From assembly GCF_017794965.1 (NCBI RefSeq), contig NZ_CP051240.1, positions 811,002 to 875,001 on the forward strand: 64,000 nucleotides of DNA. The letters are read 5' to 3'. The position numbers and the translations under genes are program-made. The notes under the pieces were generated by a model. It ran no database searches, was not told the DNA's origin, and saw only the letters and a list, made by a program, of their open reading frames with translations. This document shows, piece by piece, positions 7,271 through 60,757 of this stretch. Every line of letters starts with the position of its first letter. Position 1 is the first letter of the stretch. Source of the DNA: Alcanivorax sp. (GTDB lineage: Bacteria; Pseudomonadota; Gammaproteobacteria; Pseudomonadales; Alcanivoracaceae).

Positions 7271-7312
7271 GTATGACGCAGCACGCATCACGCTTCAGGC
7301 AACACGCATAAG
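7271..7312 (+). repeat. 7-nt periodic array, 6 units (GCANCAC type)
   Basis: gtatgac gcagcac gcatcac gcttcag gcaacac gcataag. Starts 8 nt after the stop at 7260-7262. Confidence 0.8.
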
Positions 7313-7316
7313 CGGG

Positions 7317-7539
7317 GGCGTTTTCTCTTGTGGGAGCTCTCTGTGCTCGTCAGGGTATGCTTGCAAGCGAATACCCCTTGCCGCACCAACATTCGCCTGC
7401 AAGCAGGCTCCCACGCGACAGGCATCTGCGAGCGTCAAAATGCGGCGGATAAACCCTGTTCCCCTAAACAGAGAAACCCGCCGGCTTGCCAGCCTGGCGG
7501 GTTTCGGACTTCGCTAAGTCAAACTGTGGGACAGCAGTG
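7317..7539 (+). repeat. 222-bp REP-containing repeat, copy 1 (direct repeat of 10601..10822)
   Basis: About 93% identical by eye to 10601..10822. Contains the gtgggagc...gctcccac REP-like palindrome and ends in TGTGGGACAGCAGTG. Confidence 0.9.
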
Positions 7540-7661
7540 GGTGGGTATTGTGCTTCGAGATGCGTTTCTGGAATCCCTACCTCGCTTGGGCTCGGATCGC
7601 TCAGACAAGCTGGGCTCCTACATAAAATGCGCGCCTCTGCAGCACTGCTGTCCCACAGTTT
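7521..7661. repeat. 19-bp perfect inverted repeat enclosing a half copy of the long-hairpin element
   Basis: aaactgtgggacagcagtg (7521-7539) versus cactgctgtcccacagttt (7643-7661). Between them, 7551-7621 matches the right arm of the elements at 17051, 28301 and 43291. A further 15-mer copy lies at 7787-7801. Confidence 0.85.
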
Positions 7662-7881
7662 GTATCTGCTTGACTGAGTTCTGCGGGGGCTTGCTTGTAG
7701 GCGAGGACCTGTTCGCAAGGGCGGAATTCGCTTGCAAGCAAGCTCCCACAAAGGAAGGGGCTCCTGTCCCAAAGGGGGGCTGAAAATGTGGGACAGCAGT
7801 GAACTCGCTGCCAGCTTCTTCCTACACACAAATCCGTTATTCCCTCTATTCCCTTTCCTGCGCCAGTCGTAGAATTTTTCC

Positions 7882-8823
7882 ATGCGACTGACTTACGGTT
7901 TTATCATTCTTCTCTTTGTTGGTGCCTGTTCATCGGTATCGGCGGAGTGCCGCAATCTGGCCGAGCCTCGGCCGGTCATGGCGCCGGCAGACGACCACTG
8001 GACCTTGGCCACCCTGAATCTGTGGCGCCTCCGGGATGCTCGCAAGGACTCGGCTCTGGATGAGCCGCTATCGCCTTCACTGCTGGCGCGGCGTCTGGAT
8101 GCCATTGCCGATACCGTGGTCAACGACCTGCAGGCGCCACATCTGCTGGCGGTGCAGGAGGTGGAGAACCTCGCCTTGCTGGAGAGGCTGGCAAACAGGC
8201 TGGGGCAATCCGGTTTTCGTTATCGCGCGGTGTTGCTGGAAGGCAATGATCCGTCAGGCATGGATGTGGGGCTGTTGTATCGTGCGCCCATAGTGCTGAC
8301 ACATTCCCGTGCCCTGTTTGCCACAGAAGCCTTCCAGGGCCATTCCCTTTTTTCGCGTCCGCCGTTGGCGGTTTCCCTGCAATCACCCGTGCAAGCCGAT
8401 CTTGTGGTTGTGCACCTGCGCAGCGCGCGGGATCTCAAATCAGCCCGGGTCTTTGAGAAGCGACACCGTCAGGCTTCCCGTCTTGCTGGCTGGGTGGCCG
8501 AGCAGTCGGGTCCGGTAATCGTCGCAGGGGATTTCAACAGCACCTGGGATGCCGGCCGGTTTTCGGACAGCTACAACCGGTTTGCGTCTGCATCGTTATT
8601 CAATGTCTGGTCTCTTCTGCCGAAGCAGGAACGCTACAGTTACCGCTATCGTTGTCGCCCCCAGGCCCTGGATCATATCTGGCTGTCCCCCGTGTTAAAG
8701 GAGAGAGTGAAAGCGGTGGATGTCAGTCGAGGTAGTGCCGGGCGATACAGCAAACTGTACGGCTCGGATGGAATATCACCAATATCGGATCACGATGGGT
8801 TGGTAGTGTATTTTGATCGATAG
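7882..8823 (+). CDS. Endonuclease/exonuclease/phosphatase (EEP) family lipoprotein
   Basis: Lipobox FVGAC. Has TLNLWRL near the N-terminus, VAGDFNS, and a C-terminal SDHDGLVV motif typical of the EEP fold. Confidence 0.75.
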   Translation: MRLTYGFIILLFVGACSSVSAECRNLAEPRPVMAPADDHWTLATLNLWRLRDARKDSALDEPLSPSLLARRLDAIADTVVNDLQAPHLLAVQEVENLALLERLANRLGQSGFRYRAVLLEGNDPSGMDVGLLYRAPIVLTHSRALFATEAFQGHSLFSRPPLAVSLQSPVQADLVVVHLRSARDLKSARVFEKRHRQASRLAGWVAEQSGPVIVAGDFNSTWDAGRFSDSYNRFASASLFNVWSLLPKQERYSYRYRCRPQALDHIWLSPVLKERVKAVDVSRGSAGRYSKLYGSDGISPISDHDGLVVYFDR

Positions 8824-8825
8824 AT

Positions 8826-8846
8826 GCCAGAAGCCAGAAGCCAGAA
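8826..8846 (+). repeat. 7-nt array (GCCAGAA)x3
   Basis: Starts 2 nt after the stop at 8821-8823. Confidence 0.85.
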
Positions 8847-8909
8847 GTAAAACCAGAGGGCTATATAGAGTGTAGGGGGGAGGTTGAGGTTGTGCTGTTC
8901 GGCCTTTCT

Positions 8910-8944
8910 GCGTCAGGCATCAGGCGTTCGGCATCAGGCTTGAA
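8910..8944 (+). repeat. 7-nt periodic array, 5 units (GCRTCAG type)
   Basis: gcgtcag gcatcag gcgttcg gcatcag gcttgaa. Confidence 0.8.
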
Positions 8945-10822: not shown

Positions 10823-10830
10823 ACGCCAGA

Positions 10831-11877
10831 TCAGTCTTGTGGCGGAAACCAGTACTGGATGGCCTCGCGGGTGAGTCCCTTGCGCTCGTTGGCAGTGGGT
10901 AGCCAGTTTCCGGCGTTGGCGGTCATGCCGGTGAGAAACTCGAATAATGGAAGGTGCTGGCGCAGAACCCGATGGTGGCGGTGGGAAATCACCGGGTTGA
11001 AGTAGCCGAAGAAGTCCAGCATCTGGCGGGGGTTCTTGCGTACCCACAGCCAGGAGCCCATCTCGAGGGTGAAAGGCAGAAAGGTATGTTCGGGCACACG
11101 GTCCTGGGCGTCGTCGTACAAGTAATCCCACAAGTCGCCGTGGGTGGTGTAATTAAGGGACTGGGGCTCTATCAGGTAGGGATGATGATGAGGGTAGGTG
11201 GTTTCGAATATCTGTTTGAGCCGGTACACCTCGCCAATGTGGGGGATGGGCCGGTGGCTTCGGGCATAGCAGCACCATATCCGGTCACGACGGCCGAAAC
11301 CGCTGTGACAGTCGATGCTCATGGAGAACGGGGCGGGGAACAGTTTTTCCTGCACCACCCGGATCATTGCCTGTGCCTCTGGCTCCATGGGGGCGCCGCT
11401 CTTACCCCGGTACCAGGGCAGGTGCCGGCTGAGGCGGTGGCCGCCCACCAGAAACGGCACTTTGCCCATGGCGTCGATGGGCGCATTTCGCATCAGGTCC
11501 ACCCCATTGGGGTTGCTGCGAGTGCGTTTCCAGATGCCGCCCGGATTGATCATGGGCATGAATACCAGCCTTACCTGCTCAAGTCGTCGGTGCAGCTGGT
11601 CGTCCCATTGTAGTCGATGGATCAGACTGTGCAGCCAGGACATCAACACCTGGCTGCCGATACGCTCAACTCCATGCACGCCACCAAAAAAACCGATCAC
11701 CGGCACTCGCGGTGAGGTGGAGCCCATCTCGATGACCTTTACCGGCAACGATAGCTCACCCATTGGCACTTCATGCACGGTGCTTACCCGCAGGTGCCGC
11801 TCCCCCTCACGCATCAATGCTTCCAGATCCAGCAATTCTGGCAGGTGACGTTGCAGCAGGTAGAGGCGGTCTTCCAT
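10831..11877 (-). CDS. M14-like zinc carboxypeptidase / DUF2817 family protein
   Basis: 348 aa. GGVHGVERIG (HxxE zinc motif), then NPNGVDLMRN and DCHSG. Confidence 0.7.
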   Translation of the reverse strand: MEDRLYLLQRHLPELLDLEALMREGERHLRVSTVHEVPMGELSLPVKVIEMGSTSPRVPVIGFFGGVHGVERIGSQVLMSWLHSLIHRLQWDDQLHRRLEQVRLVFMPMINPGGIWKRTRSNPNGVDLMRNAPIDAMGKVPFLVGGHRLSRHLPWYRGKSGAPMEPEAQAMIRVVQEKLFPAPFSMSIDCHSGFGRRDRIWCCYARSHRPIPHIGEVYRLKQIFETTYPHHHPYLIEPQSLNYTTHGDLWDYLYDDAQDRVPEHTFLPFTLEMGSWLWVRKNPRQMLDFFGYFNPVISHRHHRVLRQHLPLFEFLTGMTANAGNWLPTANERKGLTREAIQYWFPPQD

Positions 11878-11967
11878 AGGCGGGGCAGGCTGGGGCGAAA
11901 CGTGTCAGGCAGGTTACCGTCGGGAGGTAACAGAAATATGACGGTGGAGTGGGGTTGTATCTACGGA

Positions 11968-12005
11968 GCCGCTGTAGGAGCGAGCAGGCTCGCTCCTACA
12001 GCGGC
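11968..12005. repeat. REP-type perfect palindrome
   Basis: gccgctgtaggagcgagc ag gctcgctcctacagcggc. It has the same GTAGGAGC/GCTCCTAC core as the other repeats in the window. Confidence 0.9.
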
Positions 12006-12090
12006 TCAGTCGGACTCGTGTTGTTCACCAAACCGTGACGTTGTTGTCAGCGATTTGTCACTCGGCAGGCATAGCGTGCTCTCAACGGGA

Positions 12091-13512: not shown

Positions 13513-14979
13513 ATGGAAGAGCGCGCGGCCAGACTCCACACCCTTTCCATTAACCACCACGCGAGCGCCAGTCAGAACGACAGCACCATCGAGCAAGAAC
13601 AGAAAAAAACCTACGTCATCGACACCAACGTCCTGATCCACGATCCCAATTCCCTGCTGAACTTTGAAGAACACCGTGTGGTAATACCCATGACGGTGCT
13701 GGAAGAACTGGACAAGCTGAAAAGCGGAAAGTCGCACACTGCAGCTGATTGCCGGGCGGCCATTCGGCAGATCGACAAGGTGCTTGGCCATGCCACGCCC
13801 GAACAGGTTGAAGAGGGAATTCCGATTCCGCGCGGACCGGATAACTCAACCCAGGGTACCCTCACCGTACTGATGTCTCCCCAGGAAGAGGTGAAATCCC
13901 CACTGCCGGATCACCTCAATGACAATCGCATCATCAACGATGTGCTGGCCATGAAGGCCATGGCCCCGGATGAACGTTTCATCCTGGTGACCAAGGACAT
14001 CAACATGCGCCTGAAGGCGCGAGCCTGCGGCATTGAATCAGAGGATTATCATAATGATCAGCTGGTGACGGACATCAAGCAGCTGACCCGGGGCTATTTT
14101 GAGGTGCCCGGTTCCTTCTGGGACCAGGTTACCCAGGTGGAAACCGAGCAGGAGGGTGCGGATACCCTGCATCACCTTTCCCATGGTCTGCTGGTCAGCG
14201 AAATCCTGGGAGAGGAGGTTTATCCCAACCAGTACATCATTGATGAGCAAGGGTTCGTGGGACGTGTGATGGGGGTGGATAACGGTGTGGTGACCCTCAA
14301 GCATTACAAGGCGGACAGCATGCTGGAGCAGGAGGCATGGGGGCTCAAGCCCATGAATATCCAGCAGGCAATCGCACTGCAGTTGCTACTGGACCCGGAT
14401 GTGCATCTGGTCAACCTGACGGGTGCAGCCGGTTCCGGCAAAACCATTCTGGCGCTGGCTGCGGCCATCGAAATGACGGTGGAGCAGAAGCGCTTCAACA
14501 AGATCATTGCCACCCGCTCCACGCCGCCACTGGCGGAGGATCACGGCTTCCTGCCTGGTACCGAAGAGGAAAAAATGGACCCTTGGCTGGGTGCCATTAA
14601 CGACAACATCGAGGCGCTGCATCTCAATGACGAGAATCCTTCCGGCAGCATCCAGTATGTGAAGGAGCGGGCCAACATTCAGTTCAAGGCAATGAACTAC
14701 ATCCGTGGCCGCAGTTTCCAGAAATCCCTGATCCTGATCGATGAAAGCCAGAACCTGACCCCCCATCAGATGAAGGCCATCATTACGCGGGCAGGGGAGG
14801 GATCCAAGGTGGTATGCCTGGGCAACCTGGCACAGATCGATACACCGTATCTGTCACCCACCAGCTCCGGCCTGACTTACATGACCGAACGCTTCAAGCG
14901 TTTTGTTCATGGCGGTTCGGTGCAGCTCAATGGTGTGCCGCGGTCGTTGTTGGCGGAGTATGCGGAGTCGTTCCTCTAG
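13513..14979 (+). CDS. PIN-domain + PhoH-like ATPase (YlaK-like)
   Basis: N-terminal KTYVIDTNVLIHDP (PIN), Walker A GAAGSGKT, and DESQNLT. Confidence 0.9.
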   Translation: MEERAARLHTLSINHHASASQNDSTIEQEQKKTYVIDTNVLIHDPNSLLNFEEHRVVIPMTVLEELDKLKSGKSHTAADCRAAIRQIDKVLGHATPEQVEEGIPIPRGPDNSTQGTLTVLMSPQEEVKSPLPDHLNDNRIINDVLAMKAMAPDERFILVTKDINMRLKARACGIESEDYHNDQLVTDIKQLTRGYFEVPGSFWDQVTQVETEQEGADTLHHLSHGLLVSEILGEEVYPNQYIIDEQGFVGRVMGVDNGVVTLKHYKADSMLEQEAWGLKPMNIQQAIALQLLLDPDVHLVNLTGAAGSGKTILALAAAIEMTVEQKRFNKIIATRSTPPLAEDHGFLPGTEEEKMDPWLGAINDNIEALHLNDENPSGSIQYVKERANIQFKAMNYIRGRSFQKSLILIDESQNLTPHQMKAIITRAGEGSKVVCLGNLAQIDTPYLSPTSSGLTYMTERFKRFVHGGSVQLNGVPRSLLAEYAESFL

Positions 14980-15141
14980 TTAACAGTTAATAGTGAACAG
15001 TTAACAGCGACGCGAATCCGCATTGTTGCTTTCTGAAAGCAAAGAGGCCGCGCCCATAACCTGGGCGCGGCCTCTTGCGTTGGAGAAAAGAAAAAATCTG
15101 ACGCGTGTTTCGCTGTTAACTGTTCACTATTAACTGTTAAC
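14979..15141. repeat. 31-bp perfect inverted repeat built of 7-nt units (GTTAACA GTTAATA GTGAACA GTTAACA)
   Basis: Arms are 14979-15009 and 15111-15141; the reverse complement was checked base by base. The arms touch or contain the stops of both convergent genes. Confidence 0.95.
15043..15075. terminator. 14-bp GC-rich hairpin between convergent genes
   Basis: agaggccgcgccca taacc tgggcgcggcctct. The U-tract is poor, so terminator function is an inference. Confidence 0.5.
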
Positions 15142-16140
15142 TGACTCCACCGCCTTCTTGCACGCCTCCGATCCGTAAAAGTCATCCAGCGACCATTCAA
15201 TAAACGGCTCCAGCACCCCTTGTTCCACCAATACAGTGGCCCCTTTGGCGAGGGCCGGGGTGGTGATTTCCTTGATCTTGTCCTCGCTGATCTGCATGCC
15301 GGCAAGAATGTCTGCCAAGGTGGTTTTGCCAAGGGCATCCACGGCGGCTTTGATGCCAACGCTGATCAGATTGCGGGTGTATTCCAGCCGGGCGCTTTCG
15401 TCGCCGATCTGACAGCCTTGCTCCACCAGATCCTTCACGGTTCCCGGGGGGATCTGGGCAAGGTATTCGGCGGGCTTGAGGGGTGAAATCCGTTGATAGC
15501 CATCGCGGGCCAGTTGTTCGATGCGTTCATTGGTGAGTTGCTTGTTGAGCCACTGCTCACCGGTCTTGAGGGTTTCGCGAATATTCTTTTGCAGATAGCC
15601 GCGAATGGATTCTTCCATGCCACCCATGGCCTTGCCGACCACACTCTTGCGCCCCATTTTCATCACGCTGCTGACGCCGGGGAGTTTGGCCAGGGCATTT
15701 TCTTCCAACAGGAAATTCTTGATGCCGGTATAGAGCATCTCACTCACCATCTCGCTCACCAGCGGATGATTCATGCCGGCATGGATGGCTTTCTCGCGTA
15801 AGGTTTTCAGCTGCAGGGATTTTTCCAATACGGCTTCAAAGTGAGCCTCACTAAGCAGCTGGCCCACGGTGGCATCGTCCTGCTCGGCCGCTTTCAGTAC
15901 CGCTTCGGTGGTCTGCACAATCACGTCCTGCAGCCCCTGGGCACTGTTCGCTTCCAATACCCATTGCTCAACGACCAGGCTGAGGCTGTCGCTGTCCACC
16001 AGCTTGCCAAGCGGTGTTTTGCCGAGGCTGGTACTGGCCTGGGTCAGGAGGGCTTGCCAGTGATCGGGATTCTGCAGTTGCTGGGTCAGGTGGGTTTTGT
16101 GGGCGTCGCGCAGGGCGCTGATCAGTTCGGAAGACGACAT
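15130..16140 (-). CDS. Hypothetical acidic, helical protein
   Basis: 336-aa ORF with normal composition and no motif I recognise. Its last codons (VNS-stop) lie in the heptamer repeat. Confidence 0.6.
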   Translation of the reverse strand: MSSSELISALRDAHKTHLTQQLQNPDHWQALLTQASTSLGKTPLGKLVDSDSLSLVVEQWVLEANSAQGLQDVIVQTTEAVLKAAEQDDATVGQLLSEAHFEAVLEKSLQLKTLREKAIHAGMNHPLVSEMVSEMLYTGIKNFLLEENALAKLPGVSSVMKMGRKSVVGKAMGGMEESIRGYLQKNIRETLKTGEQWLNKQLTNERIEQLARDGYQRISPLKPAEYLAQIPPGTVKDLVEQGCQIGDESARLEYTRNLISVGIKAAVDALGKTTLADILAGMQISEDKIKEITTPALAKGATVLVEQGVLEPFIEWSLDDFYGSEACKKAVESVNS

Positions 16141-16969: not shown

Positions 16970-17004
16970 GTACGCCTGACGCTTGATGCCTTATGCCAGA
17001 CGCA
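16970..17004 (+). repeat. 7-nt periodic array, 5 units
   Basis: gtacgcc tgacgct tgatgcc ttatgcc agacgca. Starts immediately after the ompW stop (16967-16969). Confidence 0.75.
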
Positions 17005-17050
17005 AGGACGAGTGCCTGGCTGCGCCTCCCTCGCGGCCATTCTACGAAGC

Positions 17051-17282
17051 CGCTGTAGGAGCTTGCCTGCAAGCGATCCGAGCTCAGGCGAGGTAATGAG
17101 TTTCAAGTTGCGAGAGGCGAGTTTTGAAAGGCCAAGATTAAAACCCCGCACCTGACCACCGGTTTTAGATTTTCGAAACTCGGTACTCGAAACTCGCTTC
17201 TGGAATCCGTGCCTCGCTTAGGCTCGGATCGCTCAGGCAAGCTGAGCTCCTACGCGGGGTATAGCGAGGGTTTTACCGATGC
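17051..17282. repeat. Long-hairpin intergenic element, copy A
   Basis: Left arm: gctgtaggagc..gcaagcgatccgagctcaggcgaggtaa... Right arm: ...ttctggaatccgtgcctcgcttaggctcggatcgctcaggcaagctgagctcctac. Homologous to copies at 28301 and 43291. Confidence 0.85.
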
Positions 17283-17318
17283 AAAAAGGCCCGCCCGGTT
17301 TACCGGGCGGGCCTTTTT
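17283..17318. terminator. Bidirectional intrinsic terminator (A5, 11-bp GC stem, T5)
   Basis: aaaaa ggcccgcccgg ttta ccgggcgggcc ttttt. Sits between ompW (+) and glpE (-). Confidence 0.85.
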
Positions 17319-17321
17319 GCA

Positions 17322-17642
17322 TCAGGCATCAGGCATTTCCAGCGCCTCTGGAAACTGCACCTTGAATACCTCATAGCCTCCGTCCAGGCTCACTGCCTGA
17401 AACCCCTGCTCGGTGAGAAAGTCTGCGGCGCCCTGGCTGCTGTTGCCGTGGTAGCAGTAGACCACCAGGGGGCGGGCTTTGTCGCTGTCGGCGAGAAACT
17501 GATCCACGTTGGCGTTGCTCAGGTGTACCGCTCCGCGCAGGTGACCGGCGGCAAAACTGTGAGGATCGCGGATGTCCACGAACAGGGCCTGACCGTCATC
17601 AAAGCGAGCTTTGCCTTGCTCAGGGCTGATACGTTCAGGCAT
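17322..17642 (-). CDS. glpE: Rhodanese-domain thiosulfate sulfurtransferase
   Basis: 106 aa. CYHGNSS active-site loop and [13 protein letters not shown], closely resembling E. coli GlpE. Confidence 0.85.
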
Positions 17643-19304: not shown

Positions 19305-19316
19305 GGCCGTTTTTTG

Positions 19317-19351
19317 GTGTCAGGCTTCTGGCGTCCTGCGTCAGGCGTGCC
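19317..19351. repeat. 7-nt periodic array, 5 units
   Basis: gtgtcag gcttctg gcgtcct gcgtcag gcgtgcc. Abuts the stop (19352-19354) of the minus-strand gene. Confidence 0.8.
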
Positions 19352-19939
19352 TCACCCAAACACCAGCATCATGTTATTGGCTGGCAGGTCGTATACCGCC
19401 TGCAGTTTGCGCCCGTGGCGGGCAAATTCTTCCTCGATCCACTCCTTGTCGCGAATCGCTCGCAGGGGGTCGATATCCTTTAACCACAGCTCGAAAGTGG
19501 CATTGGATTCGCTGGTGAAGCGGCCGTTGATCTTGAAAGGGCCATAGATCAGGAACTGGCCGTTCGGAGCCAGATGGCGGCAGCCTTCTTCGATGCAGCG
19601 GGCCACCAGTTGCCGGGACATGATGTGAAAGGTGTTGGCGGTGAACAGGTAGTCGAACTGTTGCGCCGGCCAGGTACCACTCACATCCAGCACGATAGGC
19701 GCCAGGGCCTGGCTGTCAGGGTCCTGTAACCACTGGCGTACTGCGGGCAGGTTTTCTGCCACATCGGAGGGTTGCCAGGTCAGGTGAGGGAGTTGGCCGG
19801 ACAACCAGGCAGCGTGCTGCCCGGTGCCGGCGCCGATTTCCAGCAGCGTCCCGGGGGCCTGACAGTGCTGGCGCAGCACCGTCAGGATAGGGGCCTTGTT
19901 GTTCTCACAGGCCTGGGAAAAGGGGCGCTCGGAGATCAT
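19352..19939 (-). CDS. DUF938 class I SAM-dependent methyltransferase-like protein
   Basis: FSQACENNKAPIL and LEIGAGTGQHAAW motifs. The start abuts the SDR stop (TAAATG). Confidence 0.8.
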   Translation of the reverse strand: MISERPFSQACENNKAPILTVLRQHCQAPGTLLEIGAGTGQHAAWLSGQLPHLTWQPSDVAENLPAVRQWLQDPDSQALAPIVLDVSGTWPAQQFDYLFTANTFHIMSRQLVARCIEEGCRHLAPNGQFLIYGPFKINGRFTSESNATFELWLKDIDPLRAIRDKEWIEEEFARHGRKLQAVYDLPANNMMLVFG

Positions 19940-26259: not shown

Positions 26260-26280
26260 TATTGTTATTCCGCTTCAGGG

Positions 26281-26327
26281 CAACACGCAGCACGCCCGCG
26301 TGGGGCGTGTTGCGTGCAGCGTGATGC
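26281..26327 (-). repeat. 7-nt periodic tract that folds into a 13-bp hairpin
   Basis: Minus strand reads gcatcac gctgcac gcaacac gccccac.... Stem 26284-26296 / 26304-26316. Starts 1 nt after the stop at 26329-26331. Confidence 0.7.
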
Positions 26328-26328: not shown

Positions 26329-26928
26329 TTATTGCTCGATATAAACGTTGTCGGCCTGTTCGCCACGGTCAGACATGCGGGTGTCGAAGCGGACCCGGGT
26401 GCCAGTGCGAAGGCTGCGCCGGCCACCATTCTGAACGGCCTTGAAGTGCACAAACAGCTCTTCGCCCTTGTCGGTGAGGATAAAGCCAAAGCCCTTGTTG
26501 GGATTGAACCACTTGACCTCGCCGCGCTGCTGACCATTGCCGCCAGGCAGGGGCAGACGGGCAGGAACCAGTTTGCCGAACGGAATCAGCGGCAGCAGGT
26601 AAACTGCGACCGGGAGCCACATCCACCACTGGTTCGCAAAGACACTGGGTCCATGGCTGGCAACCAGCCCGGCCAGATAGAAGAACACTGCCACATGCAG
26701 GGGCAGACGGGCTGCACCATCACGCAGGCACACCAGGTTAACGGCCGCTGCCAGCAACAGGCCCAGCCCGGTTTGCTGGCTGTGCACATTGGAAATCTGA
26801 ACAAAGGCCAGGTTTTCATGGATGGTGACGATGGCCATTTCCGGTGCAAAAAGCAGCCAGGCCCCGGGGATGGCAAGCAAAAGTGCCGCAATAGCATAAA
26901 ATGCGGTCAAAGGTTTGGAGACATTCAT
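26329..26928 (-). CDS. Membrane protein (4 TM) with C-terminal cold-shock (CspA-like) domain
   Basis: ORF 26329..27147 trimmed to ATG 26928 (MNVSKPLTAFYAIAALLL...). C-terminal GEVKWFNPNKGFGFILTDKGEELFVHF carries the RNP1/RNP2-like motifs. Confidence 0.75.
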   Translation of the reverse strand: MNVSKPLTAFYAIAALLLAIPGAWLLFAPEMAIVTIHENLAFVQISNVHSQQTGLGLLLAAAVNLVCLRDGAARLPLHVAVFFYLAGLVASHGPSVFANQWWMWLPVAVYLLPLIPFGKLVPARLPLPGGNGQQRGEVKWFNPNKGFGFILTDKGEELFVHFKAVQNGGRRSLRTGTRVRFDTRMSDRGEQADNVYIEQ

Positions 26929-27104
26929 GGATTTGACGTTACCTTGTAAATATTGAGTGTTGAATAAACGTGATACTGAAATCCGCCGGAAATGAGGCGG
27001 AATTGCCCGGGTGGCGCGGCGAAAATTGCCGATATTGCGCCCTGTACGACCGTGCAATGCGCGCATTGTACCCAAGCCGGTAAGGAATCTCATGTGGGGG
27101 CCCA

Positions 27105-28148
27105 TTGACTGACTATCCGTTTCTCGAGGACGCCTGGCTAAAGGCATTGCAAAACAGTGGTGCGGTGACCGCTGAGCGTGGCTGGCAGCCCTGTCATGTG
27201 ACGTTTGAACAGGGCTGGATGCCTCTCTACCTGCGAAGCCATTCCCGGGGCGAGTATGTGTTTGATTACAGCTGGGCGGATGCCTACCAGCGGCACGGAC
27301 TGGCGTATTACCCGAAACTGGTGACGTCCATTCCCTTCACGCCGGTGACGGGGCCCCGCTGGCGTGGCCAACCCGAGCCGCAGACGTTGTGGGACGCGGT
27401 GCGGAACCGGATGGATGAGACCGGCGCTAGTGGGTGGCACCTGCTATTCCCTGATGACCCTTGCCGAGAGGCGCTGGAGGGTTTGCCACTGATGGCTCGT
27501 CAGGCCTGTCATTTCCGCTGGTTCAACCATGGCTATGACGACTTTGATGATTATCTCGGTCGCTTTCAGTCTCGCAAGCGCAAGAACCTGCGCAAGGAGC
27601 GTCGGCGGGTGGCAGAGCAGGGAATTGCCGTGCAGCGTATCGCCGGTCCGGCGGTGACCCCGGAACAGTGGCGTCTGTTCTATCAGTGTTATGCCAGTAC
27701 CTACCTGAAACGGGGGCAGTTCCCCTATCTTGATGAGGACTTCTTTCTGCAACTGGCACAGACCATGGCGCCTCAAATCATGTTGGTACTGGCCTACCGG
27801 GGGGAGCAGCCGCTGGCGGCGGCACTGTACTTCCAGGATTCGCAACAACTGTATGGGCGCTACTGGGGCTGTCTTGAGGAGCTGGACGGGCTGCACTTCG
27901 AGCTTTGCTATTACCAGGGCATCGAGCACGCTATTGAGACGGGATTGCAGGTGTTCGATCCGGGGGTTCAGGGGGAGCACAAGATCCTGCGCGGCTTTGA
28001 GCCGGTGATTACCTGGTCGTTGCACTATCTGAGAGAGCCTGCCTTCCAGCGCGCCATCGCCGATTTCTGCCGGGAAGAGGCGGAGCACGTGCAGCGTTAC
28101 CGGGAGGACGCCATGACGCTGCTGCCGTTCAGGAAGGATGGGGGATGA
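27105..28148 (+). CDS. GNAT-fold DUF482 (FemAB-like) family protein
   Basis: TTG start. Sequence PFLEDAWLKALQNSGAVTAERGWQPCH... is typical of DUF482. The N-terminus looks short (see findings). Confidence 0.75.
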   Translation: MTDYPFLEDAWLKALQNSGAVTAERGWQPCHVTFEQGWMPLYLRSHSRGEYVFDYSWADAYQRHGLAYYPKLVTSIPFTPVTGPRWRGQPEPQTLWDAVRNRMDETGASGWHLLFPDDPCREALEGLPLMARQACHFRWFNHGYDDFDDYLGRFQSRKRKNLRKERRRVAEQGIAVQRIAGPAVTPEQWRLFYQCYASTYLKRGQFPYLDEDFFLQLAQTMAPQIMLVLAYRGEQPLAAALYFQDSQQLYGRYWGCLEELDGLHFELCYYQGIEHAIETGLQVFDPGVQGEHKILRGFEPVITWSLHYLREPAFQRAIADFCREEAEHVQRYREDAMTLLPFRKDGG

Positions 28149-28156
28149 TCTGATCA

Positions 28157-28198
28157 GCTACGAGCTACGAGCTACGAGCTACGAGCTACGAGCTACGC
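28157..28198 (+). repeat. 7-nt array (GCTACGA)x5 plus 1 variant
   Basis: Starts 8 nt after the stop at 28146-28148. The same unit occurs at 51269. Confidence 0.9.
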
Positions 28199-28300
28199 TC
28201 GATTTGATGGGAAAACCCGGAAAAGCTCCCGGGGGGGGGCGAAGAACAGAAAACACGTTCAGATCTTTGAGTTCGGCCCACGAAGATAACCTGCGCACTT

Positions 28301-28557: not shown

Positions 28558-28569
28558 GCGTCAGGCCTC

Positions 28570-43122: not shown

Positions 43123-43127
43123 GAGAC

Positions 43128-43162
43128 GCTGCACGCGTCACGCAACAAGCAACACGCTAAAA
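43128..43162 (+). repeat. 7-nt periodic array, 5 units
   Basis: gctgcac gcgtcac gcaacaa gcaacac gctaaaa. Starts 5 nt after the coxC stop. Confidence 0.8.
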
Positions 43163-43163: not shown

Positions 43164-43194
43164 GCCGCGCTCCGAAAGGGGCGCGGCTTTTTTG
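43164..43194 (+). terminator. Rho-independent terminator of the cox operon
   Basis: gccgcgctcc gaaa ggggcgcggc (10-bp stem, GNRA loop) followed by tttttt. Confidence 0.9.
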
Positions 43195-43211: not shown

Positions 43212-43246
43212 GCTGGACGCTGGACGAATCACGTCGGACGCTAAAA
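43212..43246 (+). repeat. 7-nt periodic array, 5 units
   Basis: gctggac gctggac gaatcac gtcggac gctaaaa. Confidence 0.75.
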
Positions 43247-43290
43247 ACCTCTGTCTTCAACAGCGCACTGTGGTTGAAGGGAGTAACCAG

Positions 43291-43503
43291 CCTGCAGGCG
43301 CTCCGAGTCTCGAAGGTAAAAAGTTACGAGTTACGATAAGCGAGTTTCGAAAGGCAAAACCTCAAATCTCGTGCTGGGTTGTTGTCTTTTGATCTTCGAA
43401 ACTCGGTACTCGAAACTCGCTTCTGGAATCCTTACCTCGCCAAGGCTCGGATCGCCTGCAGGCAGGCTCCTACGGCGGGGAATAGCGAGGGTTTTAACGA
43501 TGC
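43291..43503. repeat. Long-hairpin intergenic element, copy C (left arm degenerate)
   Basis: The right arm cttcgaaactcggtactcgaaactcgcttctggaatccttacctcgccaaggctcggatcgcc...gctcctac and the tail gcggggaatagcgagggttttaacgatgc match copies A and B. Confidence 0.8.
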
Positions 43504-43539
43504 AAAAAGGCCCGCCCGGTTTATCGGGCGGGCCTTTTT
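43504..43539. terminator. Bidirectional intrinsic terminator (third copy of the module)
   Basis: aaaaa ggcccgcccgg tttat cgggcgggcc ttttt. Confidence 0.85.
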
Positions 43540-43540
43540 G

Positions 43541-43640
43541 CATCAGGCATCAGGCATCAGGCATCAGGCATCAGGCATCAGGCATCAGGCATCAGGCATC
43601 AGGCATCAGGCATCAGGCATCAGGCATCAGGCATCAGGCA
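43541..43640. repeat. Perfect microsatellite (CATCAGG)x14.3
   Basis: Counted directly. The last ~21 nt are the 3' end and stop codon of the minus-strand esterase gene. Confidence 0.97.
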
Positions 43641-44282
43641 TTCACTAATCCATTTCCCGATCTCGCGGATCTGTTCCAGGCACACCATGTGTTCCATGGG
43701 GTAGGTGCGATAGTCGGGGGACAGGCCCATCTGTTGCAGGCTGGCAACCGCGCGCTGGCCCAGCTGTTCCGGTACCACCGGATCCATGGTGCCGTGGCTG
43801 ACCATGACGGGGAGGTGGGCATTCGTTTCGCTCAGGGCGACAGGTATGGCCATGTAGGTGGACAGGGTCAACAGGCCGGCAAGCGGCTTGGGGTGGCGCA
43901 GGGCACACTGATAGGCCACAGCGCCGCCTTGAGAGAAGCCGGCGATAATGATCCTGTTGCTGGGAATGCCACGCTGGATTTCCCGTTCGATCAGATCGTC
44001 GATCGCATCCGCGGAGGCCAGAACGCCGCTCTCGTCCACCTTGCGGTCGATATCCATGGCCAGGATGTCGTACCAGGCAGGCATCACCATGCCGCCATTG
44101 ACGGTCACCGGGATGTTGGGCGCATGGGGGAAGATGAAGCGCACGGGCAGATCGGCTGGCAGCTGCAGCTCAGGCACGATGGGTTCAAAATCGTGACCAC
44201 TGGCCCCCAATCCATGTAACCAGATCACGCTGGCGACAGCGGGTTGTGCCGGCTCGATTTCGATACATTCCAGCAAGGCCAT
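43620..44282 (-). CDS. Carboxylesterase/phospholipase family alpha/beta hydrolase
   Basis: ORF 43620..44330 trimmed to ATG 44282 (alternative 44288), with GGAGG upstream. VIWLHGLGASGHDF and GFSQGG nucleophile elbow. Confidence 0.85.
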   Translation of the reverse strand: MALLECIEIEPAQPAVASVIWLHGLGASGHDFEPIVPELQLPADLPVRFIFPHAPNIPVTVNGGMVMPAWYDILAMDIDRKVDESGVLASADAIDDLIEREIQRGIPSNRIIIAGFSQGGAVAYQCALRHPKPLAGLLTLSTYMAIPVALSETNAHLPVMVSHGTMDPVVPEQLGQRAVASLQQMGLSPDYRTYPMEHMVCLEQIREIGKWISECLMPDA

Positions 44283-47862: not shown

Positions 47863-50800
47863 ATGAAAGCAGGGACGTTGCTTGCCCGATATTCCATGGT
47901 GCCATGGGCCATCGTGGTGGTTCTGACACTCAGCGCCTGTGGCGGTAGCGGTGGCGGCTCCGCCGGGGCGGCGGCCACGCCTGCGGGCTCCGGTTCCACT
48001 CCGCCCCCTGAGCCTGTCGATCCGGTGGAGGACGATCCGGAAGTCACCCTCAACAGCTGGCTGCGCAGTGTCATTAACGAAAAGGGCCTGACCGGTGATC
48101 CTGCTGCTGCCCGTCAGGTGGCGCAGACCACCCCCGCAGAAGATCCCGCCGTCAAACTGGGGCAGTTGCTGTTCTTCTCTCATACCCTGTCCGGTGACCG
48201 AACCGTATCCTGTGCCACCTGTCACATGCCGGATTTTGGCGGTAGTGACGCCCTTTCCCTGGGGGTGGGGGTATCGCCTGTGGATGCCGCCCAGGTTGGC
48301 CCCGCCCGCCGGCTTGATGCGACCACGGATCTGGATCCCGCTGCCGACGGCAAACCCAATATGCACCGCAACAGTCAGACGGTGTTCAACGCGGCACTGT
48401 ATGACCGCAGCCTGTCCTATGATGGCCGCGTCTTCGTGGTGGATCAGGCGGTCATGCCGGGGGGCAAGGGGCAGAGTATCCGTACCCCGGACACGGGCAA
48501 TCTGACCGATGGCTCCGGCGCGGATGGTTTGCTGGAAGTGTTCTCCAAGTTTCCGCTGACCAACCACAATGAAATGCGGGGGTATCTGTTCAGTGCCCTG
48601 TCCGAGGACGAGTATCGCGAGCACCTGGTGGCCCGGCTCCGCGGCACGGTGGATACGGACCTGCTTTCTGATGATGGCAGCAGCAACTGGCTGGCACTTT
48701 TCCAGGCCGCGTTTGACCAGCCTGATGCCTCTGCCGAGCAGGTGATTACCCTGGTCAATGTGCAACGGGCCCTGGCGGCGTACATGTCCTCTATGAGCTT
48801 TGTGGACAGCCCCTGGAAGCGTTTTGTTCAGGGGGAGGAATCGGCAATTACCCTGAAGGCCAAGCAGGGCGCGCAATTGTTCTTTGCCGGCAAGGACGAA
48901 GGCGGCTTGGGCTGTGCGAGCTGTCACAGCGGGGATTTCTTTACCAATGAAAAATTCTATAACGTGGGTTTCCCGCAAATCGGCCGGGGCTTCCTGCGAC
49001 CCGAGAAGGATGATATCGGTCGCTGGAACAGCACCCGCCTGGAAGCCGACAAGTATGCGTTCAGGGTACCCAGTCTGCTGAATGTGCAGGTGACCATGCC
49101 ATACGGGCATGCCGGCACCTTCGATCAGCTGGAAGACGTGATCCGTTATCACGCCAACCCCCGTGTAGGGCTGGCGTTGTTCGACTTCGGCCTGCAGCAA
49201 CTGGCCCAGTTCAAGGGGACAGAGAGTTACGATTACGCTGAAGGGCACAGTCAGGCGGTACAGGATGCAACCAGCTTCCTGCTGGCCGAACCTCTGCTGC
49301 CAGGACGGGATCTGGACGATGATGAGCTGGATCGTCTGGTTGTTTTCCTTCGTACGCTTAGTGATCCCTGTGTCAGGGACAATGTTTGCCGAAACCAGTG
49401 GCGGCCAACGGCGGAAGAGGATCCGGACGGGAACCTGCTGGTGGCCGGCGTGAATCCCACCTTCGATGGCGATACCCCGGTGGACCCGGATCCAGGAACG
49501 GGCGAGCCGCCGGTGGACCCGGCAGATTACCCGAAGACAGTGGCGTTGAATTTCACCGCACCCGCCCGGACAACCTTTGCGGAACTGGCAAGCTGCAACG
49601 AGCAGCCGGCCCCGTTTGTGGTGAATTCTGGCCTGCCGGTGTTTGTTGGCCGTCACTTGTTCGCGTTCGGTTTGTACGATGGATTGGGGCGTCCTTTGCA
49701 TCCCCATGGTTTCAACCCTGAAACCTGGAACCTGGATAAAGTGTTCAGCATCGAGCCGGTGATGATTGCCGGAGGCGTAAGTGCGGGCTATCTGGACGAT
49801 GACTGCTGGCTGGATCTGGCGTATGCCGGTGGGGAAGAATCCGGGATGGTCTTTTATCGCAATCGCGGCGGCCAACTGGGTTTTGATGCCATGGATCTGC
49901 TTGACGATGATCCGGGTGGGAAGTTTACCGGTACCGCCCTGGCAGATCTGAACGGTGATTACCGCCGGGAAATGTTGTTCGGTAATGTGCAAAGCCCGAC
50001 GCTGCCGATCTATTCCAGTAATGATGCGGGTGGCTATTATTCGGTCGCCAAGGTGCCGATGAGCCGGAACACTTACGGCATCTCCTTCGCTGATGCCAAT
50101 CATGACGGCTACCCGGAACTGTTTCTGGCTCACTGGTATGGCGGCAATGTGCTGACCGCGCCGTTGTTCTGGAAGAACAACAGTGGTGTGGAGATCGAGC
50201 ATGATGATGTGGCGGCCGGGCTGTCCAATAACGATCTGAGTCAGACCTGGAATTTTTCCCCGCAACCGGCCGACGTGAATGCGGACGGTGAGCTGGATCT
50301 GTTGCTGGCGTCGGATTTTGGCACCACCGTGGTGATGGAAGGGCAGGGCAATGGCACCTTTGCCAATATCACCGATCGGGAGATCATCACCGATGAAAAT
50401 GGCATGGGTTCCACGCTGGGCGATTATGACAACGATGGCGATCTGGACTGGTTTGTGACTTCCATCTTTGACCCCAACGGAGAGGCCGAAGCCAACTGGG
50501 GGGTGACGGGAAACCGTCTGTACCGCAATAACAGTTCGGCAGGTGAGTTGATTCTGGAAGATGTAACCACATCAGCCGGTGTGGCCGATGGAAACTGGGG
50601 GTGGGGCGCCTGTTTTGCCGATTTCAACAACGACGGTTTCCTGGATATTTTCCATGTGAACGGGTTCGGGTTTATCCCGGATTCTGCCACCGATACCGAA
50701 TTCGGTCTGAGCATGATCGAAAACTACAAGACCGCCACCCAGGAATACTTCGATTCGCTGCCGCGTTTGTTCATCAACCAGGGAGACGGCAGTTTCACCG

Positions 50801-51264: not shown

Positions 51265-51268
51265 AGCA

Positions 51269-51352
51269 GCTACGAGCTACGAGCTTTGAGCTACGAGTAA
51301 AAAAGAAAAGATATTGGGCTTTATCTTTTTCTCGAAGCTGGAAGCTCGTAGC
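51269..51352. repeat. Inverted 7-nt arrays (GCTACGA type) around an AT-rich hairpin
   Basis: gctacga gctacga gctttga gctacga (51269-51296), with the reverse-complement arm 51331-51352. Central stem aaaagata/tatctttt. Confidence 0.85.
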
Positions 51353-51355
51353 TAG

Positions 51356-55271: not shown

Positions 55272-55356
55272 GGCTGCCTCTCTTCGACAGGAGACGGGTC
55301 GTCCCGTCATTAAAACCTTGGCCGCCGAGGTCGTCCCCGGGGTATAGGAGCGGTGA

Positions 55357-55998: not shown

Positions 55999-56013
55999 TT
56001 TTCTTTCCTTGTC

Positions 56014-56041
56014 GCTTGAAGCTTGTGGCTTGCAGCTTCTT
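56014..56041. repeat. 7-nt periodic array, 4 units (GCTTGNN)
   Basis: gcttgaa gcttgtg gcttgca gcttctt. Lies in the 41-nt spacer between the two DUF1989 genes and overlaps the stop at 56040-56042. Confidence 0.8.
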
Positions 56042-57578: not shown

Positions 57579-57579
57579 C

Positions 57580-58398: not shown

Positions 58399-58450
58399 GG
58401 CAATTCCCGGTTGATTTAGAGACTGGATGCCTGACGCCAGCCGCTAAGCA

Positions 58451-58485
58451 GCGTCAAGCGTCGGGCATCTGGCGTCAGGCGTTCA
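58451..58485. repeat. 7-nt periodic array, 5 units
   Basis: gcgtcaa gcgtcgg gcatctg gcgtcag gcgttca. The last unit supplies the stop (58483-58485) of the binding-protein gene. Confidence 0.8.
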
Positions 58486-59547
58486 GAGCTTTCCTTCCGC
58501 GGCCATGGCCATGTAGTCAGGGATAAAGCGCAGCTGCACATTGCCTTCGCTGCCGAATACGCCGGCTGGCGTTTCGATACCCACAAAACCGGCATCCGGT
58601 GCGCCTTCACCGAGCAGGCCATGGTCAAAGGAGAATTCGGCCACTTTCTGCATGGTGTCTTTCAGCTCTGCACTATTGACGAATTCCACGGCTTCGCTGG
58701 CGTTGTAGAACATGCGGGTGGAGGCAAGCTGGGCTTCGTAACCGGCCAGATCAGTACCGGAGGCCTTGGCCATGAAAGTGCGGGCCGCCTTGCCGGCTTC
58801 ATCGTCGGCGGACATGGTGGCCATGATTTCGTACCAGGCGCCGGTGAGCGCCTTGCCGAAGTCCGGGTTGGCGTTCAGGGTCTCGGTGTTGACCACCATC
58901 AGATCGATGATTTCACCGGGGATCTTGGAAGAGTCGAACACCTTGTGGCTGTCCGGCATGGCGGTGATTTCGCTCAGCAGCGGGTTCCAGGTGGCCACTG
59001 CGGTCACGTCATCGGTGGTGTAGGCAGACACCATGTCAGCATCAGAGGTGTTCACCACGGTCAGGTCTTTTTCGCTCAGCCCTACTGTGTCGAGAGCCCG
59101 TGCCAGCAGATAGTGAGAGACAGACAACTCGACCAGGTTCACATTCTGGCCCTTGATGTCAGCCAGCTTGTCGGTGCCCTTGAGGACCACACCATCGTTG
59201 CCGTTGGAGAAGTCCCCTACGATCAGGGCGGTGGAATCTACCCCACCGGCGGCGGGAATGGTCAGCGCATCCATGTTGGTCATGGCGCAGCCGTCATAGG
59301 CGCCGGCAGTGTACTGATTGATGGATTCCACGTAGTCGTTGATTTGCACTACGTCGATGTCGATATCGTATTTGTCGGCCCATTTATCGACGATCTCTTG
59401 CTGGGCGCCATAGTCCCATGGCATCCAGCCCACATAGATGGACCAGCAAACGCTGAATGAATCCTTGGCCATAACGGTGGCCGGGGTGAGGGCGGCAAAC
59501 AGGGAAAGTGCTGCGGCGGCAGCGGTTTTGCGTACGGAATGGGTCAT
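58483..59547 (-). CDS. ABC transporter periplasmic substrate-binding protein (NMT1/NitT-TauT type)
   Basis: Signal peptide, 354 aa, with AAGGAGG SD upstream. It is the first gene after the riboswitch. Confidence 0.85.
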   Translation of the reverse strand: MTHSVRKTAAAAALSLFAALTPATVMAKDSFSVCWSIYVGWMPWDYGAQQEIVDKWADKYDIDIDVVQINDYVESINQYTAGAYDGCAMTNMDALTIPAAGGVDSTALIVGDFSNGNDGVVLKGTDKLADIKGQNVNLVELSVSHYLLARALDTVGLSEKDLTVVNTSDADMVSAYTTDDVTAVATWNPLLSEITAMPDSHKVFDSSKIPGEIIDLMVVNTETLNANPDFGKALTGAWYEIMATMSADDEAGKAARTFMAKASGTDLAGYEAQLASTRMFYNASEAVEFVNSAELKDTMQKVAEFSFDHGLLGEGAPDAGFVGIETPAGVFGSEGNVQLRFIPDYMAMAAEGKL

Positions 59548-59603
59548 CTCGGACCTCCTTGGCTACGGACGGAGAGGAATCCAATGACACTGCTGTCATC
59601 GTG

Positions 59604-59710
59604 CTCTCCCGGGCTTTTGTCCCGCCGTGTAACCTTCTGCCAAGCAAGTCAGACAAGGTCGCCAGCTCTCGGACCAGACATCTTCAGGACGAAGACCGGA
59701 ACCCTAGCTG
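59604..59710 (-). promoter_or_regulatory. Guanidine-I riboswitch (ykkC-yxkD motif) aptamer
   Basis: The minus strand reads ...CUAGGGUUCCGG...CUGGUCCGAGAG...ACACGGCGGGACAAAAGCCCGGGAGA..., matching the conserved ykkC blocks from memory. It is followed by 55 nt and then the SD/ATG of the transporter. Confidence 0.85.
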
Positions 59711-59915
59711 CCTATTTCGCAAATTGTGTTGAGTGCGTGATGGCATGCAAGCCATTCGATTCCTCGACAGGAATTCTGCAAGCCAGATGCCAACTTTGAC
59801 AAAGTGGGAGAAAACAAGGAGTTGGGAGTGTGGGCGGAAGTGTCAGGGCGCGAAAGTACAATAAAACGCATTGCATTGGGGCGCTGCGTACTGAGGCGCC
59901 CCAATGCGGTGCATA

Positions 59916-60689
59916 TCAGTCCGTCATGAAATTCATCAGGGCGTCCCAACTGGTCAGATCAGCATGGGCATCGTAGCCCAGCGGCAACTCGAAGCGTTTG
60001 GCTACGGCATCCGCGCCGGGATTGGTGAAGCTGTGCTGGACCCCCGGGAAGCTGAGCAGGCGCAGATCTACGCCGGCAGTGGTCATCTCGGAAACAAACC
60101 CGGTGACCTGCTCGGCGGGCACCATGGGGTCAGCCTGGCCAGTGGCCACCAAAACCTTGGCCTTGATGTCTCCCGCTTGCGCCGGCGAGTCCGTTCCCAG
60201 AGAGCCGTGGAAGCTGGCCACACCGGCCAGATCCACGCCCCGACGGGCCTGGTTCAGCACCACCGCACCACCAAAGCAGTAACCAATCGCGTAGATCCGT
60301 TTGGCATCCACCTGCTGCTGTTTGAGCAGCATCTGGCGGGCCGCTTCGAAGCGGGCATTCATCTTTTCCGGCTCCGCCAGTGCGGCTTCCATGAAGGCGG
60401 TGGCATCTTTGGGATGGGTGGCTACTTTGCCAGTGCCGTACATGTCCACGGCCAGGGCAACAAAGCCTTCCTTGGCCAGCATGCGGGCGCGATTGCGGGC
60501 ATATTCGTTCAATCCCCACCATTCGTGTACCACGATGACGCCGGCAGAAGGTTCCTTCTGCTTTTCGTTCAGGTACATGACACCGGTGCCCAGCCCGTCG
60601 GGCAGGGTGACTTCTGTTTCGATGATCTCGGCAGCGTAGGCGCTTTGGCCCATGACCAGAAACAGGATAAACAGGCCAAGCCGTTTCAT
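59916..60689 (-). CDS. Dienelactone hydrolase family protein (secreted)
   Basis: Signal peptide. VVHEWWGLN and GYCFGG nucleophile motifs. Confidence 0.85.
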   Translation of the reverse strand: MKRLGLFILFLVMGQSAYAAEIIETEVTLPDGLGTGVMYLNEKQKEPSAGVIVVHEWWGLNEYARNRARMLAKEGFVALAVDMYGTGKVATHPKDATAFMEAALAEPEKMNARFEAARQMLLKQQQVDAKRIYAIGYCFGGAVVLNQARRGVDLAGVASFHGSLGTDSPAQAGDIKAKVLVATGQADPMVPAEQVTGFVSEMTTAGVDLRLLSFPGVQHSFTNPGADAVAKRFELPLGYDAHADLTSWDALMNFMTD

Positions 60690-60729
60690 TGCTTTTCCTC
60701 TCGGTGATTAAGTGTTTTCGGGGTTGTGC

Positions 60730-60757
60730 GCGTCACGCATCAGGCGGCCGGCGGCAA
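60730..60757. repeat. 7-nt periodic array, 4 units
   Basis: gcgtcac gcatcag gcggccg gcggcaa. Ends 2 nt from the stop at 60760-60762. Confidence 0.75.

Follow-up and report, generated by a model that had tools for sequence, protein, structure and literature searches.

The 64 kb stretch of the Alcanivorax sp. genome analysed here (contig NZ_CP051240.1, positions 811,002–875,001, hereafter referred to as the window) contains 19 arrays of tandemly repeated 7-nt units. Almost all are confined to the 30–40 nt that separate a stop codon from a terminator hairpin or from the next ribosome-binding site. Their orientation with respect to the gene upstream is constant, and whole units are gained or lost among conspecific genomes. 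I consider with moderate confidence that they form a lineage-specific class of heptanucleotide microsatellites of Alcanivorax sensu stricto, resized by slippage, a subset of which has been recruited structurally.

In this model, replication slippage in 7-nt steps would create and resize the arrays, which would persist only where an indel of ±7 nt spares the reading frame and the geometry of promoters and 5′ untranslated regions (UTRs). The arrays would accordingly be transcribed, at the beginning of the 3′ UTR, and selection would be what confines them to the interval between the stop and the terminator or ribosome-binding site. Some of them now form inverted arms on either side of bidirectional terminators, or are part of hairpins resembling repetitive extragenic palindromes (REPs) and REP doublets forming hairpins (REPINs). 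These copies, together with the array that follows the COX3 gene, may be kept by selection, and may act structurally, in a REP-like manner, where the mRNA ends, by extending or spacing the terminator stem-loop. Because unrelated unit families fill the same niche, I do not propose that a single sequence is recognized.

Heptamer arrays and their placement

Genes were called by their contrast in GC content at third codon positions, and those flanking arrays were confirmed with Pfam; non-coding DNA makes up ∼15% of the window. Tandem Repeats Finder, applied to the whole window, returned 41 rows, including 19 of period 7 and two of period 14. A lag scan requiring 15 or more matches in a 21-nt window identified 17 lag-7 tracts, 14 of them in non-coding DNA. 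The same scan gave no tract at lags 4, 5, 8, 10, 11 and 13, and hits at lags 6, 12 and 15 were in coding DNA only. At a stricter lag-7 setting 8 tracts were found, against a shuffle mean of 0.18. Outside genes, the match frequency is highest at lags 7, 14 and 21 (0.280, 0.283 and 0.277, respectively) over a baseline of ∼0.255, while coding DNA shows a 3-nt period only.

The 19 tracts had been listed in an earlier note on this sequence, and every one was recovered by Tandem Repeats Finder or the lag scan. That note described their periodicity as strict; the 7-nt period holds throughout, but most arrays are degenerate (69–94% matches), and only four are perfect (17319–17336, 28156–28197, 43212–43226 and 43540–43641). 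It had also noticed identical units at unlinked loci, and indeed GCTACGA is common to 28157 and 51269, and CATCAGG to 8917, 17320 and 43541. GCTACGA is in addition one base off the GTTACGA units found in the stems of the REP-like hairpins described below. Consistent with microsatellites, the 7-nt copies are arranged head to tail, are commoner than chance, and are nearly excluded from coding sequence, the unit length not being a multiple of three. Periodic sequences inside coding regions were observed at 29331–29377, a 21-nt repeat in a 637-amino acid open reading frame (ORF), and at 49709–49741, where AACCCTG, AAACCTG and GAACCTG units lie within the gene of an FG-GAP protein. A search of the window against Rfam returned two guanidine riboswitches only, neither the arrays nor the REP-like hairpins matching any RNA family, and no tRNA was found in the window.

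The earlier note placed at least 14 tracts at stop codons; here, 16 of the 19 begin 0–9 nt from a validated stop codon or include it, the others being those at 8910, 43212 and 51331. Six co-directional spacers contain an array, which is located at the stop-proximal end in every case. No tract was found in the divergent (5′/5′) spacers of the window, none of which scores above 11/21. By folding, most arrays are seen to take up the space from the stop to a strong hairpin that has a T-run behind it. At three arrays the repeat enters the coding sequence and supplies the stop codon. The last four codons of two genes lie in an array, in such a way that the stop is retained at any copy number: the carboxylesterase and rhodanese proteins both end in ...MPDA*, read from ATGCCTGATGCCTGA, and their original C-termini have been overwritten by the array. 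Two unrelated proteins thereby carry the same ATGCCTG array-encoded tail (43620–43634 and 17322–17336).

Read in the sense of the gene that they follow, the stop-adjacent arrays have 49 occurrences of A[C/T]GC, compared to 4 of its reverse complement, GC[A/G]T. Taken individually, 11 arrays are biased toward A[C/T]GC and none is biased in the opposite direction, with five belonging to families that lack the motif. As the biased arrays follow genes on both strands, this polarity tracks transcription and not replication. A looser motif, A.GC..[CG], was dropped, since the reverse complement of ATGCCTG also fits it after rotation. I also rejected a role as a three-frame stop device, for which one array out of 16 qualifies on the sense strand and one out of 16 on the antisense strand.

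The location of the arrays on the transcribed sense strand, directly past the end of translation, would suit Rho-utilization (rut) or Rho-spacing sites that load Rho past the stop codon, as the earlier note had suggested. Such sites are ∼60–80 nt of unstructured, C-rich and G-poor RNA. Most arrays are 28–35 nt long, with typically 4–5 units, and they are not C-rich and G-poor (179 C against 157 G overall, with several arrays having at least as many G as C). Moreover, strong intrinsic-terminator-like hairpins follow most arrays, and several arrays are themselves paired in hairpins. Composition and length thus lend no support to a Rho-related role, which I consider very improbable.

A further reading is that the arrays are a dedicated cis-element, in which an AYGC core repeated every 7 nt would bind an oligomeric or multi-domain protein, on RNA or DNA, and would couple the termination of translation to transcription termination or mRNA decay. 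There is an analogy for this, as TRAP binds spaced GAG triplets. The sense-strand polarity and the typical length of 4–5 units are as expected for such an element, as is conservation above the synonymous rate at two loci (see below). In the ACGC-type arrays the bases A1, G3 and C4 are almost constant and positions 5–6 vary, although I give this little weight, because concentration of the variation at particular unit positions is not significant when all families are considered (p ∼ 0.6). The AYGC core is absent from about one in three stop-adjacent arrays (GTTAACA, AGCTACG and AAGCTGC in the window, with CGAGTTT, AATTGAT and AGTTGAA in relatives), and these families share the niche of the others, sometimes down to one orthologous site. 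No candidate protein emerged from the analysis. I regard a dedicated cis-element as rather unlikely.

The arrays themselves are as follows, beginning with those of the ACGC type. An ACGCNNC-type array of ∼5 units (7276–7310, + strand) starts 6–14 nt past the stop of ORF 6840–7262, and ACGCCTG-type arrays are found 2 nt past the OmpW stop (16972–17006, +), 3 nt past the stop of the DUF938 gene 19352–19939 (19316–19348, −), and between the stop of the UbiA-family gene 33810–34721 and the terminator at 33744–33772 (33773–33807, −). Five ACGCNNC units (43126–43160, +) separate the COX3 stop from the terminator at 43164–43193, and are orthologous in most genomes of Alcanivorax sensu stricto; downstream of this terminator a GCTGGAC-type array (43212–43242, +) has the same polarity. 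Past the COX3 terminator of Alloalcanivorax marinus (L032, ∼10960–11020; related sequences are designated by L numbers), ACGCTTAC-type units were observed, which have an 8-nt period and keep the ACGC core.

Two arrays are made of ATGCCTG units: a perfect (ATGCCTG)14.6 (43540–43641, −), which encodes the last four codons and the stop of the carboxylesterase 43620–44282, and (ATGCCTG)2.4 (17320–17336, −), which includes the rhodanese stop and abuts the rhodanese terminator. Among the other families, (GCCAGAA)3 (8826–8847, +) lies 2 nt past the stop of the Exo_endo_phos gene 7882–8823, and four GCRTCAG units (8910–8939, −) are placed in the middle of a convergent spacer, with no adjacent stop. 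A perfect (AGCTACG)6 (28156–28197, +) starts 8 nt past the stop of a FemAB-like gene. A short degenerate array (60728–60757, −) lies 2 nt past the stop of the SutA-like gene 60760–61074, and it is this minus-strand ORF, not the plus-strand one, that is its neighbour.

Arrays occur both between convergent genes and inside an operon, as first noticed. Two of them lie in the operon controlled by a guanidine-I riboswitch: an AAGCNNC array (56003–56038, −), which fills the 41-nt spacer of two DUF1989 genes and reaches the next ribosome-binding site, and an ACGCCTG-type array (58448–58482, −), which starts at the base after the stop of an NMT1-like gene. In this gene cluster a guanidine-I (59604–59718, −) and a guanidine-II riboswitch (55294–55342, −) are arranged in series; the cluster comprises the NMT1-like binding protein, the two DUF1989 genes, and a 1208-amino acid ORF after the second riboswitch.

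Copy number, turnover and conservation among relatives

To compare copy numbers I used contigs with a 100% identical flanking protein, and among these four arrays differ. Copy numbers are 12, 14 or at least 17 for the (ATGCCTG)n array at 43540, 2 or 3 for both the (GCCAGAA) array at 8826 and the rhodanese array, and 2 or 4 for the array at 8910. For the gene beside the perfect (GCTACGA)6 array, the contigs end in a REP-like region. Interrupted arrays are invariant within the window species, as seen for the COX3 arrays of L001–L004 and the GTTAACA arms (described below) of L112–L114. Perfect arrays therefore behave as microsatellites, changing in whole 7-nt steps. This is the unit-number polymorphism that the earlier note had proposed to look for, and its suggestion of hypervariable spacers is borne out for perfect arrays but not for degenerate ones.

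Turnover is also apparent between species. Most Alcanivorax sensu stricto genomes have kept the COX3 array, with base substitutions and now and then an inserted or deleted unit, while some have lost it. Past the stop of the UbiA-family gene, the array is of the ACGC, CGAG or AATTGAT type depending on the species, and the spacer between OmpW and rhodanese carries arrays in some species and none in others. Unrelated unit families are thus found after one orthologous stop codon in different species.

Short-read contigs frequently break off within the long (ATGCCTG)n array, and this might suggest that the arrays are assembly artefacts. Identical arrays were however recovered from ENA, Logan, JGI and NCBI assemblies made independently, and over 15 genomes carry orthologous ones. 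This rules out the explanation, to which I give practically no credence. The short-read metagenome contigs L084–L090 and L108–L111, which belong to the window species, routinely end in the long array or in a REP-like region, indicating that these repeats fragment assemblies.

Some arrays are conserved. The COX3 array is identical to those of L005, L012 and L006 at 29, 31 and 30 of its 35 positions, respectively, compared to identity fractions of 0.79, 0.66 and 0.675 at 4-fold degenerate sites of the neighbouring genes. At the PhoH-like gene, a GTTAACA-type array that overlaps the stop (14978–15010, +) is the left arm of a 33-nt inverted repeat, 100% complementary to the right arm (15110–15142, −), which includes the stop and last codons of ORF 15130–16140 (−). 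Between the window and L115/L116 the arms are identical at 33/33 positions, while the region overall is ∼79% identical. The inter-arm segment (15011–15109) matches that of L115/L116 at 78/99 positions when reverse-complemented (score 54.5), against 71 in direct orientation (score 24), and is therefore inverted in these sequences. The inversion could be due to recombination between the arms, or to an invertible cassette. In another clade both arms are of a TTGATAA type, 61% identical to those of the window, and complementary to each other at 31–32 of 38 positions. This conservation of array and arms suggests that some arrays are maintained, either by selection or by concerted evolution between arms.

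How far does the trait extend? The window COX3 is 98% identical to that of Alcanivorax sp. S6407 and of A. nanhaiticus. I surveyed ±10 kb around COX3 in 79 genomes, scoring the 40 nt past each stop for lag-7 tracts of at least 14/21 matches. In Alcanivorax sensu stricto, tracts are present at 48/364 3′ ends (13%) and at 2/366 5′ ends. The corresponding counts are 4/246 and 1/248 in Alloalcanivorax, 0/189 and 0/193 in other Alcanivoracaceae, 0/163 and 1/162 in Moraxellaceae-like metagenome-assembled genomes, and 0/350 and 1/356 in Alphaproteobacteria. Metagenome contigs around the PhoH-like gene served as a second, independent locus set. Here tracts were found at 10/211 3′ ends of close relatives versus 3/194 5′ ends, with zero 3′-end hits at lags 5, 8 and 10, and the more distant groups gave 2/184 and 0/235. 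The rates in the different groups show that the trait is lineage-specific, belonging to Alcanivorax sensu stricto, and the window species is especially rich in heptamer arrays.

These data can also be read as a neutral by-product of a lineage-specific slippage bias, acting wherever DNA is unconstrained, with no role for the arrays and with their apparent conservation due to low local mutation or to concerted evolution of the arms. Copy-number polymorphism, the gain, loss and replacement of arrays between species, and the many unrelated unit families are all in line with this, and the inverted arms evidently recombine, given the inverted inner segment of L115/L116. A purely neutral origin is however difficult to reconcile with the strand polarity (11:0), with arrays that abut the stop tightly inside long spacers, with a COX3 array more conserved than 4-fold sites, and with arms that are 100% identical at ∼21% genomic divergence when the segment between them has diverged. 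I see it as a distinct, if minority, possibility.

The microsatellite model that I favour has its own difficulties. Slippage combined with passive tolerance leaves unexplained both the strand polarity and the way arrays hug the stop inside convergent spacers of 150–500 nt, and it does not account for a preference for 7 nt over 5, 8 or 10. Conservation above synonymous sites was observed at two loci, other arrays being lost or replaced between species, and the absence of a significant positional bias in unit variation, mentioned above, is a further difficulty. Finally, the assignment to 3′ UTRs is itself a prediction, drawn from the position of the arrays upstream of predicted hairpins.

Inverted arms and REP-like hairpins

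Hairpins were identified by folding and by an inverted-repeat search, as a consensus terminator and promoter scan missed obvious ones such as that at 43164–43193. In that scan, which was not retained, terminators were at shuffle level in two of three segments, and modestly above it in the third.

Several arrays are part of paired structures. The GTTAACA arms described above enclose a GC-rich, terminator-like hairpin (15044–15074), which lies in the segment inverted in L115/L116. An AGCTACG-type array (51268–51297, +), located 3 nt past the stop of a 1159-amino acid FG-GAP/CCP_MauG protein, is the 5′ arm of a long hairpin in which 51268–51308 pairs with 51320–51353, the reverse-complement arm proper (51331–51353, +) pairing with 51268–51290. 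Hairpins made of ACGC units are found at 26280–26325 (−) and 58429–58480, the latter through pairing of the distal units of the NMT1-like array with 58429–58444. The former is directly past the stop of ORF 26329–27147 (−), with the next gene 20 nt on. This ORF (272 amino acids, start codon uncertain) has a C-terminal cold-shock domain (CSD) and a long N-terminal extension.

A second type of structure is a dispersed module of ∼270 nt, present at 17065–17336, 28300–28569 and 43290–43560, and also in L005, L006 and L009. Each copy comprises three parts: a long hairpin with a heptamer stem and GTAGGAGC at its boundaries, a terminator stem of 21 bp, and an array of CTGATGC units. The window contains 11 occurrences of GTAGGAGC, where 1.2 would be expected. 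In the first long hairpin (17050–17253) it is present at both outer ends, and the inner stem is made of GTTTCAA/GTTGCGA and TCGAAAC heptamers. The second copy (28296–28491) has a stem of CGAGTGA, CGAGTTA and CGAGTTT heptamers, and the third (43278–43473) has heptamer rows at 43322 and 43396. Hairpins bounded by GTAGGAGC resemble Pseudomonas-type REP doublets. A GTAG-headed palindrome in inverted doublets was found only in the hairpins at 17050, 28296 and 43278, and not in the tandem arrays. An inverted GTAGGAGC element of the REP/REPIN-like kind was also seen at 11963–12010, and copies of the element are present in related genomes.

The earlier note had taken shared units at unlinked loci as an argument against purely local slippage. 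This does not hold, as changes in whole units, as expected from slippage, are directly seen in the copy-number comparison, and the sharing comes in part from the dispersed module, which accounts for CATCAGG at 17320 and 43541.

Synteny with near-identical conspecific contigs was observed to stop at the outer end of REP-like hairpins, at ∼43471 with respect to L001 and at ∼17050 with respect to L101. This suggests that REP-like elements are rearrangement or insertion junctions.

The arrays could therefore be of mobile origin, as arms or relics of REP/REPIN-like hairpins, or of hairpins similar to miniature inverted-repeat transposable elements, that insert at gene 3′ ends. The dispersed module, the excess of GTAGGAGC-bounded hairpins with heptamer stems, the synteny breaks at element ends, and the CGAG-type hairpins found directly past a stop in L006, L010 and L014 all point in this direction. 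Most ACGC-type arrays are however single, with neither an inverted partner nor common flanks, and length changes occur in place, by whole units. I consider a mobile origin improbable.

REP, bacterial interspersed mosaic elements and REPINs of Escherichia coli and Pseudomonas are located at transcribed gene 3′ ends, in convergent and co-directional and rarely in divergent spacers, and form hairpins. The heptamer arrays occupy the same niche, and GTAG-type REP-like hairpins with heptamer stems coexist with them here. REPs, in contrast, are dispersed copies of one palindrome with no unit slippage, whereas the arrays are tandem 7-nt units.

Comparison with known repeats and significance

The closest precedent is found in Xanthomonas, where intergenic GGGAATC heptamers, read on the sense strand, either overlap a stop codon or are found no more than 50 bp from one (Rehm et al., 2015; PMC4692102). 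They are typically of ∼4 units, are under-represented between divergent ORFs, form 70–75 convergent inverted pairs, and are positionally conserved at 83% between two species; being a single G-rich family, they were interpreted as G-quadruplex formers (PMC4692102). Every positional feature matches: a gammaproteobacterial host, a 7-nt unit, proximity to the stop, depletion from divergent spacers, inverted pairs (here 14978/15110, 51268/51331, the 26280–26325 hairpin and 58429/58465), and kept positions. In contrast, the Alcanivorax units belong to many families, none of which contains a GGG tract, and their polarity is set by the AYGC core. G-quadruplex formation can therefore not be the common principle.

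In marine Beggiatoaceae, also gammaproteobacteria, TAACTGA direct repeats of 2–6 copies are intergenic and located upstream of start codons, with a proposed post-transcriptional role (MacGregor, 2015; PMC4679880). The likeness is limited to intergenic heptamer tandems, as the Alcanivorax arrays have many units and are stop-proximal, with tracts at only 2/366 5′ ends. With these repeats and those of Xanthomonas (PMC4692102, PMC4679880), the suggestion in the earlier note that gene-end heptamers were undescribed in gammaproteobacteria is incorrect.

In Haemophilus influenzae, 7-bp repeats that vary by slippage reportedly act as a promoter/5′ UTR phase-variation switch of hmw1A and hmw2A (PMC8262952, PMC12721329). 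These too are heptanucleotide repeats of a gammaproteobacterium whose copy number varies by slippage. The hmw loci are contingency genes, while the Alcanivorax arrays are at the 3′ ends of housekeeping genes; they follow stop codons, and do not form a switch in a promoter, 5′ UTR or ORF.

More generally, as summarized in PMC4679880, heptanucleotides are the most abundant long simple sequence repeat (SSR) in most genomes, and slippage, during which the polymerase would contact ∼7 nt, was proposed as the cause (Mrázek et al., 2007). The present arrays agree with that summary, in which heptamers dominate among 5–11-nt repeats in scattered lineages. Stop adjacency and polarity are absent from the summary.

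Tandem heptamers of cyanobacteria, the short tandemly repeated repetitive (STRR) sequences, were reportedly described by Mazel and colleagues in 1990 as several families per genome, mostly non-coding. The Alcanivorax arrays are likewise tandem heptanucleotides of multiple families and mostly non-coding; they differ in phylum and in their units, those of heterocystous cyanobacteria being CCCCAGT, TTGGTCA and CAACAGT, and are not STRRs. I know of no stop-proximal rule for cyanobacterial STRRs. I would assign the Alcanivorax arrays, as heptanucleotide SSRs, to one broad class that also takes in these STRRs, the long SSRs of Mrázek et al. and the Xanthomonas GGGAATC heptamers. A literature search found no report of such heptamer repeats in Alcanivorax.

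A bolder possibility, which I consider unlikely, is that the AYGC arrays are a strand-polar, heptad-periodic 3′-UTR element under purifying selection, read by a periodic RNA- or single-stranded-DNA-binding factor after the ribosome leaves. If so, the factor might be an oligonucleotide-binding (OB)-fold/cold-shock or a ring-shaped protein, translation termination would be linked to transcription termination or mRNA decay, and slippage would adjust how many binding units there are. The heptamers of Xanthomonas and cyanobacteria would then belong to the same unrecognized system, and would be neither G-quadruplexes nor junk.

Heptanucleotides have been recognized as the dominant long SSR in scattered bacterial lineages since at least 2007. 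With Alcanivorax, the stop-proximal layout of the Xanthomonas type is now seen in a second lineage of gammaproteobacteria, and here without G-rich units, which argues against G-quadruplexes as a general explanation. Alcanivorax also adds features that can be tested: a fixed polarity, inverted arms that co-evolve on either side of conserved terminators (in one case with an inverted segment between them), and unit-number polymorphism within a species. On the practical side, the arrays break short-read assemblies, and could provide variable-number tandem repeat (VNTR) markers for the strain typing of oil-degrading bacteria.

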